Under the pieces are notes generated by a model. It was not told where the DNA came from and searched no databases. It was given only the letters and a program-made list of their open reading frames with translations. This document shows positions 54,736 to 64,000 of a stretch of 64,000 bases of DNA, piece after piece (positions within the stretch are counted from its first letter, which is position 1; each line of letters starts with the position of its first letter). Made by a program: the position numbers and the translations under genes. This DNA is from an uncultured delta proteobacterium (GTDB taxonomy: Bacteria > Myxococcota_A > Polyangia > Polyangiales > Polyangiaceae), in the NCBI GenBank assembly GCA_963841435.1, contig CAWJCS010000002.1:608001-672000 (forward strand), read 5' to 3'.

Positions 54736-55968
54736 TCAATCGATGCGGCGGATGCCTTCGAGGAAGCGTTCCGGCGGCACGAAGTCGGTGTAGCGCGCGG
54801 CCTCGCGTCCACGCGAATCGAACACGAGCACCGTGGGCAACCCGACGATGCCGAAGCGCTCGAGCGTCGCGCTCACGGTCGGATCGTCGTCGTTCGTGGC
54901 GTCGACCTTCACGGCGAGGAACCTACCGAGCTCGGCGCCGACGGCCGGCTCGGAGAACGTCACTTTGTCGAGCTCCTTGCAGGCGCCGCACCACGCGGCC
55001 GTGAAATCGACGACGAGCGGCCGGCTCTCGCGTTGTGCCTGCGCCTGCAGCGCCGCTATGTCGCCGCGCTGCCACGCGAGCGCCTCGCTCGGCTTGGTCA
55101 AGCCGAGCACCGCCGAGAATGCCCCCGCCGAAACCAACAACAGTCCGACGCCTTTGGCGACCTTCACGCCTGCACCGGGCTCGGAAAACTCGCGATGAAT
55201 GGCGCCGAGCAGCGTGCCCACGACCACCGCGATGCCCGCAGCGACGAACAGCGCCACGCCCGGCTTCACGAATGCGCCGAGCAGCGGGAATGCTGTGTTC
55301 AGGAAGTACAGCGCTACGACGACGAGCACGACGCCGAGGATCGATTTCACGTGGACCATCCAGTGCCCGCTCTTCGGCAGCTGCACGGCGAAGGTGCCCA
55401 CGGCGAAAAAAGGCGCTCCGAGCCCGAGCGCGAACGCACCCATCGCGAGCGCGCCGAGCGGAGCGCTCTTGGTCTTCGCAATCCACGTCAGGATGCCGGT
55501 CAGCACGGGTCCCGTGCACGGCGAGGCGATGAGCCCGCACGCGAGGCCCAAGAGGAAGGCGCCGCGGTACCCGATGCCGCCGATACTCGCGAGGCGATTC
55601 GTGACCGACGACGGCAGCGCGAGCTCGAAGGCACCGAATAGCGAGGCTGCGAGCAGCAGGAACAGGGCGGCCATCGCCGCAACGACCCAGCGGTTCTGCA
55701 GCACCGCGCCGAAGATCGAGCCGGTGAGGCCGGCGATGACGCCGAGCGGCACGAACATCGCGACGATGCCGAGCACGAACGCCGCCGAGAGTGCCGCGCC
55801 CTCCCAGCGCGTCGTCGACTTGCGCGCGCCGAACACGCTGACCGTCACGGCGATCATCGGGTACACGCACGGGGTGAGGCTCACGATGAACCCACCGGCG
55901 AGGGCCGCGAGCGCGGCATAGACGGGGCCCTTGCTCAGGGCCTCGGTGAACGCATCCGAGGGAGGCAC
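54736..55968 (-). CDS. dsbD: DsbD/CcdA-type thiol:disulfide interchange protein (TM domain + thioredoxin)
   Basis: LTPCVYP and SPCTGP in the TM domain; DFTAAWCGACK thioredoxin; GLPT. No N-terminal Ig-like alpha domain. Confidence 0.88.
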   Translation of the reverse strand: MPPSDAFTEALSKGPVYAALAALAGGFIVSLTPCVYPMIAVTVSVFGARKSTTRWEGAALSAAFVLGIVAMFVPLGVIAGLTGSIFGAVLQNRWVVAAMAALFLLLAASLFGAFELALPSSVTNRLASIGGIGYRGAFLLGLACGLIASPCTGPVLTGILTWIAKTKSAPLGALAMGAFALGLGAPFFAVGTFAVQLPKSGHWMVHVKSILGVVLVVVALYFLNTAFPLLGAFVKPGVALFVAAGIAVVVGTLLGAIHREFSEPGAGVKVAKGVGLLLVSAGAFSAVLGLTKPSEALAWQRGDIAALQAQAQRESRPLVVDFTAAWCGACKELDKVTFSEPAVGAELGRFLAVKVDATNDDDPTVSATLERFGIVGLPTVLVFDSRGREAARYTDFVPPERFLEGIRRID

Positions 55969-60231: not shown

Positions 60232-61572
60232 TCACGGTCGGAGTCGCAACACGAAGCGTTGCGGCGCGAGGCTTCGCGGCTCGGTCGCGAGATCGACGCT
60301 CGGGTCGATGAGGCGCTGGCTCGGTCGCCCGTTGAGGGCCGCCCAGGCGTCGGCATAGACGCTCACGTGGGTGTGCCCGCGAGCGCGGTAGCGCTCGGCG
60401 ACGTACAGAGCGTACTCGTGAATCATGTCCGGTTGGATCGACATCATCGCGTATTGCATCGGCGTGAGCTCGTCGTCGGGGAGGGCGCGGAGGCGCCGTG
60501 GGGGCGTGTCGGCGACCACGGTGAGCTCGACGTGCCCCGTCTTCTCGTTCAGCATCACGCGCCACGCAAAGCGAAAGCCCTCCTCGGTCCAGCTCGCCGC
60601 TCCGGGATAGAAAAGGGAGCGAGCGGGCAACACGAGCTGCGCGGCGAGCAGGATCGCGAGCGTGACTCGTTCGACACCGCGAACGACCCGTGGCTCGAGC
60701 CGCGCGGCGGGCTCTGGCCCCGCTCGCCAGGAGAAACGCAGCCAGCCGGGCTCGAAGAAGACCGTACAGGTCAGGACCATCAACCAGGAAAACACGCCGA
60801 TCGGGAACAGCAGCCCGACGAGCCCGTGAAACGCGACGGCGACGCCGAACGCCGCCGCCCGCGAGCGCCGAAAGAGGAGGAGCGGCACGATCGCGAGATC
60901 GAAGGCCACGCCGGCAAAGCTCGCCGCGTACGCCGTGGCGGGCGACGCGACGAGCGGGCCGACGAGCGGGAGCTCCGCGAAGCGACCGAGCCAGAGCCCG
61001 AGCGGCTGGGCGGAAAACAGCCAGTCTGGGTTGAGCTTGGCGACCCCCGCGTAAAAATACACGATGAAAAGCTGCGCGCGAAGCGCGTGGTACGCGAACG
61101 CCGGCACCTTACGCTCGTGGCCCCGGCGCCGTGCGTCGAGGGAAAAGGCCGCCCCAGCGTCGAGGATCACGAAGTAGAGCGCGACGAGACTCGCGAGATA
61201 GTAGTGGTTGAGGTACGTCGCCTTGTCGAAGAGCTCGGCGAGCGTGAACGTGACGAAGAACGTGAACGCCGCGAGCCGCGTCCACGCGCCGAGCATCAGC
61301 GCGACCGCAGCGAGCGCCATCAGCGAAAAGTGCACGGCGAGGCCAAAGGCTGGCCAGGGCCGCACCCATTCGAAGCCGAGATAGGTAAAGTGAAAGGAAG
61401 GCGCGAGGTAGAGCTCGGAAATCCAGCCCTTCGCCACGAATCGCAGGGTCGAGAGCAGCATCAGCGCGCCGAAGCCGATGCGGAACGCGGCGAGTCCCGC
61501 GGCATCGACGGGTCGCGCGAGAGCGGCGAGGGCGCGGCGAGCCAGGCGACGGCCGTGTTCAGTCGCCGTCAT
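60232..61572 (-). CDS. HTTM domain / vitamin K-dependent gamma-carboxylase-like protein
   Basis: LAAFRIGFG, F.F.Y.GFEWV, DKATYLNHYYL, VYFYAGVAKLNPDW, IGVF, WTEEGFRFAWRVML.EK, QPDMI, LNGR..Q.LIDP.VDL. Confidence 0.92.
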   Translation of the reverse strand: MTATEHGRRLARRALAALARPVDAAGLAAFRIGFGALMLLSTLRFVAKGWISELYLAPSFHFTYLGFEWVRPWPAFGLAVHFSLMALAAVALMLGAWTRLAAFTFFVTFTLAELFDKATYLNHYYLASLVALYFVILDAGAAFSLDARRRGHERKVPAFAYHALRAQLFIVYFYAGVAKLNPDWLFSAQPLGLWLGRFAELPLVGPLVASPATAYAASFAGVAFDLAIVPLLLFRRSRAAAFGVAVAFHGLVGLLFPIGVFSWLMVLTCTVFFEPGWLRFSWRAGPEPAARLEPRVVRGVERVTLAILLAAQLVLPARSLFYPGAASWTEEGFRFAWRVMLNEKTGHVELTVVADTPPRRLRALPDDELTPMQYAMMSIQPDMIHEYALYVAERYRARGHTHVSVYADAWAALNGRPSQRLIDPSVDLATEPRSLAPQRFVLRLRP

Positions 61573-62635
61573 TTTGGCTGAAGCCCACGCTCAGTGCGAG
61601 CGCGTTCACCATCTCGATCTGCACGAGCCGACCGAGCGCCGCGAGCGCGTCGACGGCGCGGCTGACGTCGCGCGGGCTCTCGCTCACGGCGCGAGTGAGC
61701 GGCTCCGGCACGGCCTCGACCGCCGCGCGTGCCGCGGTGAGTCGCTCGGTCATCACCCCGTCGAAATCGTGCCCGCGCGAGCGCAAGTACCGGCCTAGCC
61801 CGCTGCCCGCAGGGTCGCCGAAGTAAACGAGCGAGACGCCGTCGAGCGCGTCGCCGAGATCCGCGAGCGAGCGGCCGCTGAAGCGGGACTCGGCGGCGTC
61901 CGGGGCGGCGCTGCCCTCGGGTGCCTGTCCCAGTGGCTTTTCCAGTCGATCGATGCGCATCGCTTCGAGCGAGACGCCGAGCTCCTGCAAGACCGCCGAG
62001 ACGGCCAGCGTGAGCGACGCGTAGCGCGAGCTCGTGCGACCGGCGCCGACGAGCTCACCGAGATAGTCGTCGCCCGCCGGGTCCCAGGCCGCACGCAGCT
62101 CCGTGGCGCGGACCCGGAGGTCCTCCGTGAGCGCGAGCAGGTATTCGCAGCGTCGCGGAGTGTCCGAGAGCTCGGCGACGAGGTCCGCGTTCGGCTCGTA
62201 GAGCAGATACTCGATGGCGGGCATGCCCTTCTCGGCGGCGCCGAGCGTCGTCGGCCCCTCGTCGTCGAGCGTCAACGTGGAGGCGAGCACGCCTTCGATG
62301 GCGGCCGGGCGTGCCGGCCAGAAGTCGATCTTCGGGCCCAGCCTGAGCGGCTCGTCCGAGTAGGGGCCGAAGGCGAAAGCGTCCCCGCGCTTGAGCGGCG
62401 CGCGTGCCTCCCACCATGCACCGCGCGCGGACTCGAGCGAGCCGTCATCGGGCATCTCGCAGAGCGCCTCGGTCTCGTCGCGGAGCACCTCGGTGCGCGC
62501 TTCGAAATCCCGATAAACCGGCAGCACGACGCCGCCACCGAACGATTCGAGCCACGCGCGGCGCGCGTCCGGCACCTCGTACGGACTGCACGCACCGGCC
62601 ACGAAAAAGAGGGCGAGCGGTAGCGAGCGCCTCAC
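61559..62635 (-). CDS. Imelysin-like (peptidase M75 fold) lipoprotein
   Basis: AGAC lipobox; AR.AW, FGP, IDFWP, KGMPAIEYLLY, ESRFS..SL, C-terminal GFSQNDGD. Confidence 0.88.
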   Translation of the reverse strand: MRRSLPLALFFVAGACSPYEVPDARRAWLESFGGGVVLPVYRDFEARTEVLRDETEALCEMPDDGSLESARGAWWEARAPLKRGDAFAFGPYSDEPLRLGPKIDFWPARPAAIEGVLASTLTLDDEGPTTLGAAEKGMPAIEYLLYEPNADLVAELSDTPRRCEYLLALTEDLRVRATELRAAWDPAGDDYLGELVGAGRTSSRYASLTLAVSAVLQELGVSLEAMRIDRLEKPLGQAPEGSAAPDAAESRFSGRSLADLGDALDGVSLVYFGDPAGSGLGRYLRSRGHDFDGVMTERLTAARAAVEAVPEPLTRAVSESPRDVSRAVDALAALGRLVQIEMVNALALSVGFSQNDGD

Positions 62636-64000
62636 AGTGACTCCACGAAGACGACGAGCGCCGAGCGCTCCTCCAACGTCATGCTGCGGAACGCCTCGCG
62701 CGAGCTAGCGCCCTCACCGTCGTGCCACAGAACGGCTTCGGCGACGCCGCGAGCGCGCCCGTCGTGCAATAGGCGGTCGTGGCCGTTGACGGCAGGGACG
62801 CGGCCGACGCCCCAGAGCGGCGGTGTGCGCCACTCGCTCCCACCGGCGCCGAAGCTCGGGCGACCGTCGGAAAGCCCTTCGCCGAGGTCGTGCAGCAGAA
62901 GATCGGTGTACGGGAAGATCACCTGATGGGAGAGCTCGGGTAGATCCTCGACGTTGCCGGTCTCGTGTCGCGGGACGTGGCAGCGATCGCAGCCCGCGCT
63001 CGAAAAGAGCGCCTGCCCGCGCCGCACGGGCGCCTGGGCCGCGTCCTGTCGCGCCGGTACGGCGAGCAGCCGTGCGTAGATCTCCACGCGGTCGAGGATG
63101 TCGGGACCGACCTCGGGGTCGCCGCCCGTCACGCGTGCGGCGCATTCGCGCTCGGCGGCCGTGCAGTCCTGCTCGACGAAGAGCGGTGTCGTGAGCCCGA
63201 GGTCGCCGAGGAAGGCGCCCGCGGCTTGCTGGCGGACGGAAGGCTGCTCCGCTTTCCAGCCGAAGCGCCCCGGCTCCTCACGGCCGAGCGCCATGTCCCA
63301 CACGCGATTGAGGCGCCCCGAGATGCCGTCCTCGTCGGCATCGTCGGGATCCTCGAGCGCGTCGAGCCGCTCGACCGGTATCGCCTCGAGCAGGCCGAGG
63401 CCGATCATCGCGGGCGCCACGCGCGGTGACACGACGAGCTCTGGGTCGAGCTCGCCGTAGCCGGGCTCGTCGATGCCGTACGTCGGGGCGAGCAGCGTGT
63501 ACGGCTCGCCGTCGGCGAACGTTCCGGCCACCTCCTCGACCTCGAGTCGCGGTGTCCCCTCGACGGGCACGTCGTCGATCGCGAACGGCTGGAGCTGTCC
63601 GCCGTACGTCGGCTCCGGCAGGGGCTCGCCGTGGGGGCCGCGCCCGGGGACGCCGAGTCGCAGGAGCAAGCCGAGGAACGCCTCGTGCGGATTCGAGCGG
63701 CGGCCGGCCGCGGCCATCCTTGAAGTGGCACGCCGCGCACGAGCGTGCGTTGAAGAGTGGTCCGAGGCCGTCGCGCCCTGCCGTGCTCGAAGGCGCCTGC
63801 ACCCAGGGCTGGTTGAAGTACGCATTGCCCGCGAAAAAGAGCGGCTCGTGCTCGTCGCTCAGATTCGCCGCGGGCAGCGTGAAAGCGTTCGAGCCGCCGA
63901 GCAGCGTGTTGGTCGTGGCGCCGCCCGGCATGCGTTCCTCGAGCGCGGGTGACGTGTCCGATGGAGCTTGCGTCGAGCCGGAGCAGGCGAGCGTCGCGAG
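62632..64000 (-). CDS. Di-heme oxidoreductase-like (DUF1111/DHOR) cytochrome c lipoprotein; 5' end outside the window; +1 frameshift near 63692-63693
   Basis: LAC lipobox near the edge; DGLGPLFNARSCAACH (heme 1); SPRVAP..IGLGLLEAI, DGISGR, GRFGWKA, CDRCH (heme 2), YTDLLLHD, EWRTPPLWG, LHDGRAR. The two track ORFs join if one base is removed. Confidence 0.88.

Follow-up and report, generated by a model that had tools for sequence, protein, structure and literature searches.

Organization of the operon

The stretch of DNA analyzed here, referred to as the window, comprises 64,000 nucleotides of the genome of an uncultured delta proteobacterium (G000:C2:608001-672000, G+C ~70%). At its far end it carries a set of overlapping genes for a membrane protein related to human vitamin K-dependent gamma-carboxylase GGCX (the HTTM protein), an imelysin-like lipoprotein (IME2) and a di-haem oxidoreductase (DHOR, DUF1111). 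The initial annotation had described these as three minus-strand genes with overlaps of 14 and 4 nt, with which the coordinates of the open reading frames (ORFs) agree, and had expected more genes past position 64000. The latter were indeed recovered from an overlapping part of the same contig (L005 = G000:C2:668001-688000; an L005 coordinate is the window coordinate minus 60000) and include the second imelysin that had been anticipated (IME1, of the GxHxxE type), a CxxCH lipoprotein, a beta-barrel-like protein and a promoter-like site with a Fur-like box. The features are the following.

60232..61572, minus strand: HTTM / vitamin K-dependent gamma-carboxylase homolog, 446 aa, Pfam HTTM and VKGC_lumenal_dom
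61559..61572, minus strand: 14-nt overlap of IME2 stop and HTTM start, translational coupling (ORF coordinates)
61559..62635, minus strand: IME2, IPPA-type imelysin-like lipoprotein, 358 aa, GTG start, Pfam Peptidase_M75 8.8e-44
62632..62635, minus strand: 4-nt overlap (GTGA) of DHOR stop and IME2 start (ORF coordinates)
62632..64000, on to window-equivalent 64036 (L005:4036), minus strand: DHOR (DUF1111) di-haem oxidoreductase gene, frameshifted, Pfam DHOR
63688..63700, minus strand: one-base change of frame within DHOR, from '...CHFKDGRGRPPLE' to 'NPHEAFLGLLLRL...'
L005:4033-5199, minus strand: IME1, ICMP-type imelysin, Peptidase_M75 7.4e-77, lipobox AAAGC, GYHAVEFLLWG (GxHxxE)
L005:5216-5545, minus strand: small lipoprotein with a single CxxCH, 109 aa, marginal match to PF09626 (22.5 bits, cut-off 22.2)
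L005:5542-6378, minus strand: beta-barrel-like protein by sequence, 278 aa, signal peptide, matching no family
L005:5216-6378 (G000:C2:673216-674378), minus strand, just past the window: the two head genes of the operon, as above
L005:6416-6388, minus strand: promoter-like site TTGAAA-17-TATCGT
L005:6390-6408: Fur-box-like site overlapping the promoter-like site, 5 mismatches to the classical Fur consensus

The full operon thus reads: promoter with Fur-like box, beta-barrel-like protein, CxxCH lipoprotein, ICMP-type imelysin, DHOR, IPPA-type imelysin and HTTM. Beyond the window the genes overlap as well, IME1 with the DHOR start by 4 nt and the stop of the 278-aa gene with the start of the 109-aa lipoprotein gene (GTGA). 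HTTM is the last gene, because the genes downstream of it are convergent; judged from their ORF translations only, these are probably glycogen genes. The arrangement is best explained as an iron-starvation operon of which the 3' half falls within the window. The system had been proposed to face the periplasm, which is in line with the lipoprotein signals on both imelysins and the Arg-rich cytoplasmic N-terminus of HTTM. The NCBIfam collection contained no model for HTTM, IME2 or DHOR of the window operon. The 109-aa lipoprotein resembles the last haem domain of TorC (6e-8, well below the TorC family cut-off), and in tblastn searches, with the longer upstream frame as the query, neither the 109-aa nor the 278-aa gene adjoined the cassette in other loci.

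The DHOR gene of the window contains the full profile and both CxxCH motifs, split over two frames. Pfam DHOR was matched in both (4.9e-70 for profile positions 211-499 and 1.6e-13 for 7-85), with the first motif, CAACH (63725-63739), in the N-terminal frame and the second, CDRCH, in the C-terminal part. All seven homologous DHOR proteins aligned by tblastn in two abutting frames that switch around 63690-63698, and in the relatives both Pfam pieces lie within a single open frame. The split could reflect a genuine frameshift or a mistake in the assembly.

The HTTM protein as a homolog of human GGCX

The HTTM protein matched both Pfam HTTM (2.5e-74, 250.6 bits) and VKGC_lumenal_dom (8.9e-43, 146.3 bits), each with a cut-off of 27.7 bits. 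In a phmmer search against the chains in the PDB, all eight distinct sequences that were matched represented human GGCX (E 2.8e-38). The alignment, in which the GGCX residue numbers were corrected for the 31-residue offset of the construct, places the motifs that had been quoted in the initial annotation as matching those of the animal enzyme: N122/H123 of YLNHYY align with N159/H160, K179 of YFYAGVAKL aligns with K218, FRFAWRVML (quoted as FAWRVML) aligns with YGYSWDMMV, and in the LNGR segment LNGRPSQRLIDP aligns with INDRFQQRIFDP. In addition, W184, D225 and F261 align with W223, D263 and F299. According to PMC12647623, Asn159, His160 and Tyr395 hold the carboxylate of the substrate Glu, and Phe299 and His160 hold CO2. 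In an alignment of 28 homologs, which are 51-59% identical to the query and show a mean column identity of around 52%, the residues N122, H123, K179, W184, D225 and F261 are invariant. The expectation that the Lys and the Asn-His pair correspond to the GGCX active site was thereby borne out.

The same relationship emerged from an AlphaFold model of the HTTM protein (predicted local distance difference test score (pLDDT) 81.4, predicted TM-score (pTM) 0.81). All 16 Foldseek matches at E<=0.001 were human GGCX, with a TMq of 0.68-0.83 and a root-mean-square deviation of around 4 A; 14 of these gave a TMq of 0.81-0.83 and two apo structures 0.68 and 0.76. The identity to the GGCX structures was 22-28% and the TM-score normalised by target length 0.55-0.58. 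The superposition on human GGCX that had been suggested yielded a TM-score of 0.82. Going by this predicted structure, the HTTM protein is a structural homolog of human GGCX, and its catalytic core appears intact in sequence.

The two proteins are 27-28% identical and share the HTTM and VKGC lumenal domains, the equivalents of the quinol-deprotonating catalytic base Lys218, Asn159-His160, Trp223, Asp263 and Phe299, and an active side that is topologically outside the cytoplasm. The human enzyme is considerably longer (758 versus 446 aa); the window protein lacks the N-terminal extension, its gene adjoins that of an imelysin lipoprotein in a probably iron-regulated operon, and it is without a known gamma-carboxyglutamate (Gla) substrate. 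Two further differences, at the C-terminus and at Tyr395, are weighed below.

As for the source of the cofactor, contig 6 of the genome carries menB and menD close together, with scores of 463.5 and 391.7 bits that exceed the respective cut-offs, and two matches to the VKOR family were found elsewhere. A search for MqnA (PF02621) of the futalosine pathway gave no match in this genome, which is 95% complete. This predicted gene content shows an organism that would make menaquinone by the classical men pathway.

IME2 as an imelysin of the IPPA type

IME2 carries a lipobox (Cys16), a GxxxxE motif without His (G137 to E142, 'GMPAIE'), Glu residues at 224 and 249 and a C-terminal D-G-D. Its conservation was read from 74 and from 31 homologs: 98% of the 74 retain the lipobox Cys, the Glu residues at 224 and 249 are conserved and the D-G-D is invariant. 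IME2 aligns over its full length with 3pf0, an imelysin-like protein of Psychrobacter, and both end in DGD. In Xu et al. (PMC3143127), 3pf0 is the type of the IPPA family, together with PA4372 and VC1266. The model of IME2 (pLDDT 91) has the imelysin fold, with Foldseek matches to 4ecg (TMq 0.76) and 3pf0 (TMq 0.73), and it matches EfeO, EfeM and Algp7 weakly (TMq 0.41-0.50).

The constant partner of HTTM

To define the gene neighborhood, one genome per species was scanned with the 28-sequence alignment. In this way 587 of 600 candidate stretches were confirmed, and the 80 that scored best were annotated using profiles built in the analysis; in high-GC loci the ORFs were read from stop to stop. 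The 80 loci were derived mostly from Flavobacteriia, Cytophagia and Saprospiria, and also from Polyangia, Binatia, one member of the Trueperaceae and one of the Balneolaceae. Where upstream sequence is available (78 loci), the gene immediately ahead of HTTM encodes an IME2-type imelysin in the same orientation in 75 cases. The exceptions are L018, where a TonB-dependent receptor separates the pair, L025, where a receptor is found at the contig edge, and L006, which has none. Moreover, a TonB-dependent receptor directly follows HTTM in 71 of the 80 loci, and in 57 the imelysin gene has a DUF4856 gene of the same orientation ahead of it. A Pfam check of 16 loci, including eight whose imelysin had been missed by tblastn, recovered the imelysin and the receptor domains in all 16 and DUF4856 in 14. 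IME1 and DHOR occur together in just 21 of the 80 loci.

Within the order to which the window belongs, the HTTM matches in 61 genomes split into those of at least 126 bits (VKGC-type) and those of at most 91 bits. We found that 37 of the 38 VKGC-type genes have a Peptidase_M75 match within 3 kb, and that for 16 of the 38 a DHOR match is no more than 5 kb away. Twenty of the remaining 22 were examined: IME2 is directly upstream in 19, and a TonB receptor and DUF4856 are present in 16 and 11, respectively. The five low-scoring HTTM matches of the window's genome have no imelysin nearby, as its sole two imelysin matches belong to the window operon.

Basically two cassette types can be discerned. 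Type A, that of the window, consists of an ICMP imelysin, DHOR, an IPPA imelysin and HTTM, and is also found in L007, L008, L009, L011, L033, L060 and L070, and in L018, where the TonB receptor separates IME2 from HTTM. Type B consists of DUF4856, an IPPA imelysin, HTTM and a TonB receptor. The pairing of the genes is not reciprocal: IME1-DHOR stands alone in L106 and L107, and in L108-L110 it is accompanied by an IME2-like gene without HTTM, and in two of these (L109 and L110) by DUF1513. A search for fused HTTM-imelysin proteins among the longer proteins gave six matches, none with an imelysin domain, which is weak evidence.

Some other arrangements were encountered within the order. At G006:C104:5986-10681 and G038:C1:6660728-6665653, HTTM does not close the imelysin-DHOR-imelysin operon but points towards it from the opposite strand. 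At G020:C4:275669-280043 two imelysin matches come first, then DHOR, and HTTM directly follows DHOR, with no imelysin in between. The closest relative of the window protein in the genome collection, at 54% identity, is one of the two HTTM genes of L006 and L087 that are discussed further on.

The data show that HTTM has its constant partner in the IPPA-type imelysin and not in the di-haem protein, and that the pairing spans phyla. The supposition that HTTM is conserved with its neighbor genes therefore held, both in the public loci and within the order. The same cannot be said of the suggestion that HTTM links menaquinol to the di-haem protein, which is poorly supported because most cassettes with the HTTM-imelysin pair have no di-haem protein. 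The TonB receptor that had been predicted does belong to the system in relatives, and the type A operon of the window lacks one. The working core of the operon is best explained as an IPPA-type imelysin lipoprotein plus an HTTM membrane enzyme.

Sister cassettes with a hydroxylase in the place of HTTM

The imelysin matches that are not next to HTTM in the window's order were searched for other membrane partners, and the resulting counts are minimum numbers. IME2, a TonB receptor and an FA_hydroxylase-family membrane di-iron enzyme are encoded in this order on one strand in at least three loci (G030:C169, G049:C29 and G057:C11), and FA_hydroxylase is directly upstream of IME2 in at least one (G047:C46). 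Furthermore, two of the five long open frames that were scanned contain FA_hydroxylase followed by Peptidase_M75 in one frame:

L118:3932-6049, minus strand (G058:C7): hydroxylase-imelysin fusion, TonB receptor gene next
L119:1592-3919, plus strand (G016:C204): hydroxylase-imelysin fusion, TonB receptor gene next

The IPPA-type imelysin thus appears to work with one of at least two unrelated, presumably oxygen-dependent membrane proteins. The existence of two alternative membrane partners therefore supports the view that imelysin and membrane protein form a physical and functional unit.

Iron regulation

The proposed link to iron-regulated loci is documented for homologs in Riemerella anatipestifer. 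Table 4 of PMC5609570 lists the consecutive genes RAYM_09779-09794, annotated as TonB receptor, 'vitamin K-dependent gamma-carboxylase', imelysin lipoprotein and hypothetical protein, as raised by iron restriction and in a fur mutant. The Riemerella Fur-box 19-mer given in that paper was sought in the 320 nt upstream of DUF4856, for which 53 of the 57 loci with this gene were testable. With up to three mismatches allowed, 32 of these 53 Bacteroidota loci have the site ahead of their first cassette gene, versus 0.3% of 2650 shuffles; with up to four allowed, 43 do, versus 2.1%. Moreover, 38 of the 58 sites with at most three mismatches in 1.07 Mb concentrate in the 17 kb upstream of DUF4856. 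The iron/Fur evidence for the type B relatives is strong.

A candidate for the Fur box that had been sought near the window operon lies upstream of it, the Fur-box-like site at L005:6390-6408. Its five mismatches to the classical consensus were equalled by none of 200 shuffles of the region. The 64-kb window itself contains no site within six mismatches of this consensus, and at three mismatches or fewer L005 gave no match. Within type A, five of nine loci (that of the window included) have a site with at most five mismatches, a level reached by at most one in 200 shuffles. As to the accessory proteins, DUF4856 has a faint likeness to FEA1-related lipoproteins (6e-6) and the cassette TonB receptor resembles siderophore receptors, both below the cut-off. 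Taken together, the HTTM-imelysin pair is embedded in two kinds of TonB/Fur iron cassettes, with a putative Fur site in the type A operon of the window.

Neighboring genes

Some features close to the operon were recorded in addition. Divergent from the Fur-like promoter region, on the plus strand at L005:6541-7911, an ORF encodes a 456-aa secreted protein with a lipoprotein-like signal and a Gly/Ser-rich linker, which has a faint VWA match (E 0.0065, below cut-off). At 54736-55968 of the window, on the minus strand, an ORF resembles a DsbD/CcdA-type thiol-disulfide transporter fused to a thioredoxin domain (WCGAC), as read from the ORF list only. The 199-aa ORF at L005:5196-5795, which overlaps the IME1 start, was rejected as an Arg-rich off-frame artefact.

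The role of the HTTM protein

We propose that the HTTM protein may be an active menaquinol- and O2-dependent enzyme that acts on the imelysin or its cargo in an iron-starvation operon, a reading to which we assign a probability of around 0.55. Its active site would face the periplasm, where it would use menaquinol and O2 and act on the IPPA-type imelysin or on what the imelysin holds. Within this general statement two chemistries are rated about equal, and both are tentative: Glu-to-Gla carboxylation of the imelysin, and a redox or oxygen reaction that is driven by quinol, involves no carboxylation and targets imelysin-bound iron or an imported chelate. In the former case HTTM would carboxylate a carboxylate-bearing residue of the imelysin during its passage of the inner membrane, and the Gla would bind hard metal ions, for instance Fe(III), more strongly. 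Carboxylation is suggested by the invariant Asn-His and the CO2-pocket Phe of HTTM and by the acidic metal site of imelysins. Its most far-reaching version is doubtful: a first bacterial Gla-protein system, in which a carboxylated imelysin (or other cassette protein) would provide a high-affinity Fe(III) site under iron starvation, the sister hydroxylase would make an equivalent ligand by hydroxylation, and animal GGCX would descend from this bacterial iron-acquisition enzyme.

Several observations weigh against this proposal. The window operon copy may be decaying, because its DHOR gene is frameshifted. The 80 loci, the best-scoring of 587, are mostly from Bacteroidota, and related loci are not independent observations. 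Two VKGC-type HTTM genes (L006:9887-11323 and L087:453-2075) stand alone, with no imelysin in the DNA examined; their neighbors are sulfate-activation genes or H+-pyrophosphatase. Within HTTM, the position of Tyr395, which hydrogen-bonds the substrate Glu in GGCX, is occupied by Phe (F333), and almost all members of the clade have Phe here. HTTM also lacks the propeptide-binding C-terminal half of the lumenal domain, as the alignment stops near human residue 490, where the HTTM protein ends (at chain residue 459 of 696). On the side of the imelysin, no Glu or Asp of IME2 was found to be specific to HTTM-linked copies when these were compared with hydroxylase-linked ones: at position 249, 90 of 93 HTTM-linked and all seven hydroxylase-linked imelysins have Glu, and at position 224 E, D and Y all occur in either group within the order. 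Also, IPPA-type imelysins occur without HTTM, in L108-L110, and 3pf0 of Psychrobacter shares the motifs. The overlapping genes and the fusions point to proteins that act together in a 1:1 ratio, and less to an enzyme with a substrate. Finally, a hydroxylase in the place of HTTM is no less compatible with an oxygen-dependent or redox role common to both proteins than with carboxylation, and argues for the broader role because a hydroxylase cannot make Gla.

The main alternative is that HTTM is a quinol-linked redox partner that does not carboxylate. Deprotonated menaquinol, with or without O2, would change the redox state of imelysin-bound iron or attack an imported chelate, and HTTM would play the part that the membrane di-iron oxygenase has in the sister cassettes. 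We regard this as possible, though it falls well short of an even chance. FA_hydroxylase does occupy the equivalent place in the loci of G030, G049, G057 and G047 and in both fusions, and a Phe for Tyr395, the missing propeptide-binding half and an IME2 without HTTM-specific Glu are what a non-carboxylating enzyme would allow. Rishavy and co-workers are said to have found in 2005 that the VKGC homolog of Leptospira epoxidises vitamin K and leaves test peptides uncarboxylated. To our knowledge, however, reduction or oxidation of a metal is known for no HTTM protein, and the type A operons already carry a di-haem oxidoreductase. Moreover, none of the 28 homologs deviates at the Asn-His pair or at the CO2-pocket Phe, residues that GGCX uses for carboxylation according to PMC12647623.

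By analogy with MloH, HTTM might instead modify a small molecule, either a metallophore or its precursor, which the imelysin would then bind. This bacterial HTTM enzyme, as cited in PMC12647623 and in the preprint 10.64898/2026.08.19.745780, has an intermediate other than a protein as the target of its carboxylation, and the receptor that follows HTTM in 71 of the 80 loci is of the siderophore-receptor type. Nevertheless, no genes for non-ribosomal peptide synthetases (NRPS), polyketide synthases (PKS) or NRPS-independent siderophore synthetases (NIS) were seen in the annotated cassettes, and the cassette proteins are all extracytoplasmic, so that we consider a small-molecule substrate unlikely. 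Least probable is a mere membrane dock or assembly factor for the imelysin without catalysis of its own: the overlapping genes and the fusion of an alternative membrane protein to the imelysin do suggest 1:1 partners, but the anchor is disfavoured because the catalytic Lys, Asn-His, Trp, Asp and Phe stay invariant in 28 homologs at ~52% mean column identity.

Relation to known systems

The gene trio that precedes HTTM is known, as it is an icmP/IrpA-type cassette as described in PMC3143127, and the enzyme is a truncated GGCX homolog. Fur-regulated operons of this type include PA4370-PA4373 (icmP) of P. aeruginosa and VC1264-VC1267 of V. cholerae (Xu et al. 2011, PMC3143127). They share with the window operon the order of a GxHxxE imelysin, a DUF1111 di-haem protein and a GxxxxE imelysin, the lipoprotein signals and probably the regulation by iron. 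They differ in the fourth gene, which is HTTM in the window and not DUF1513, and in that the IPPA imelysin-HTTM pair also occurs without the first two genes. The DUF1513 form is present in the window's own order as well (L109 and L110). We take PA4373 to be the DUF1513 protein that constitutes the fourth gene of the icmP-type operon.

The Riemerella genes RAYM_09779-09794 represent a type B cassette (compare L043 of Riemerella columbina), and in PMC5609570 they appear as table rows, without analysis. The window operon is instead of type A, with an ICMP imelysin and DHOR and without a TonB receptor or DUF4856. EfeUOB shares with the window system an M75/imelysin-like periplasmic metal-binding protein that works with an oxidoreductase; the window system differs in lacking the EfeU permease, the cupredoxin domain and the DyP peroxidase, and in having HTTM as its membrane component. 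Among bacterial HTTM enzymes, the Leptospira VKGC ortholog presumably has the GGCX catalytic residues. MloH of malonomycin synthesis has them too, and differs from the window protein by being fused to a further domain and encoded in a PKS-NRPS cluster. A different HTTM partner, DUF5819, is described in a 2026 preprint (10.64898/2026.08.19.745780). Finally, the STRING neighbors of the Leptospira imelysin LruB (LIC_10713), LIC_10711 and LIC_10712, offer no more than a lead to the gene context of the Leptospira VKGC.

Our literature search retrieved no paper that mentions HTTM as well as imelysin and none that mentions DUF4856; imelysin and a gamma-carboxylase were encountered together solely in the Riemerella table of PMC5609570. 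What appears in no paper that we could search is the conserved union of HTTM with the IPPA imelysin, in which HTTM follows the imelysin rather than the di-haem protein.

Implications

The role of the bacterial homologs of vitamin K-dependent carboxylase has been a standing question for some twenty years, and the mechanism of the 'EfeU-less' imelysin iron cassettes is a second question. The pairing described here joins these two questions. It provides the bacterial VKGC family with a constant partner, a regulatory signal (iron, via Fur) and a cellular side, the periplasm. Considering that the pair occurs in genetically tractable aerobes, for instance among the flavobacteria and myxobacteria, its role is directly testable. 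Detection of Gla would trace a modification that is regarded as exclusive to animals back to bacteria and would link it to the capture of metals; if Gla is not formed, the family would gain a new quinol-dependent chemistry. Either outcome would explain a missing membrane step of a widespread iron-uptake system.

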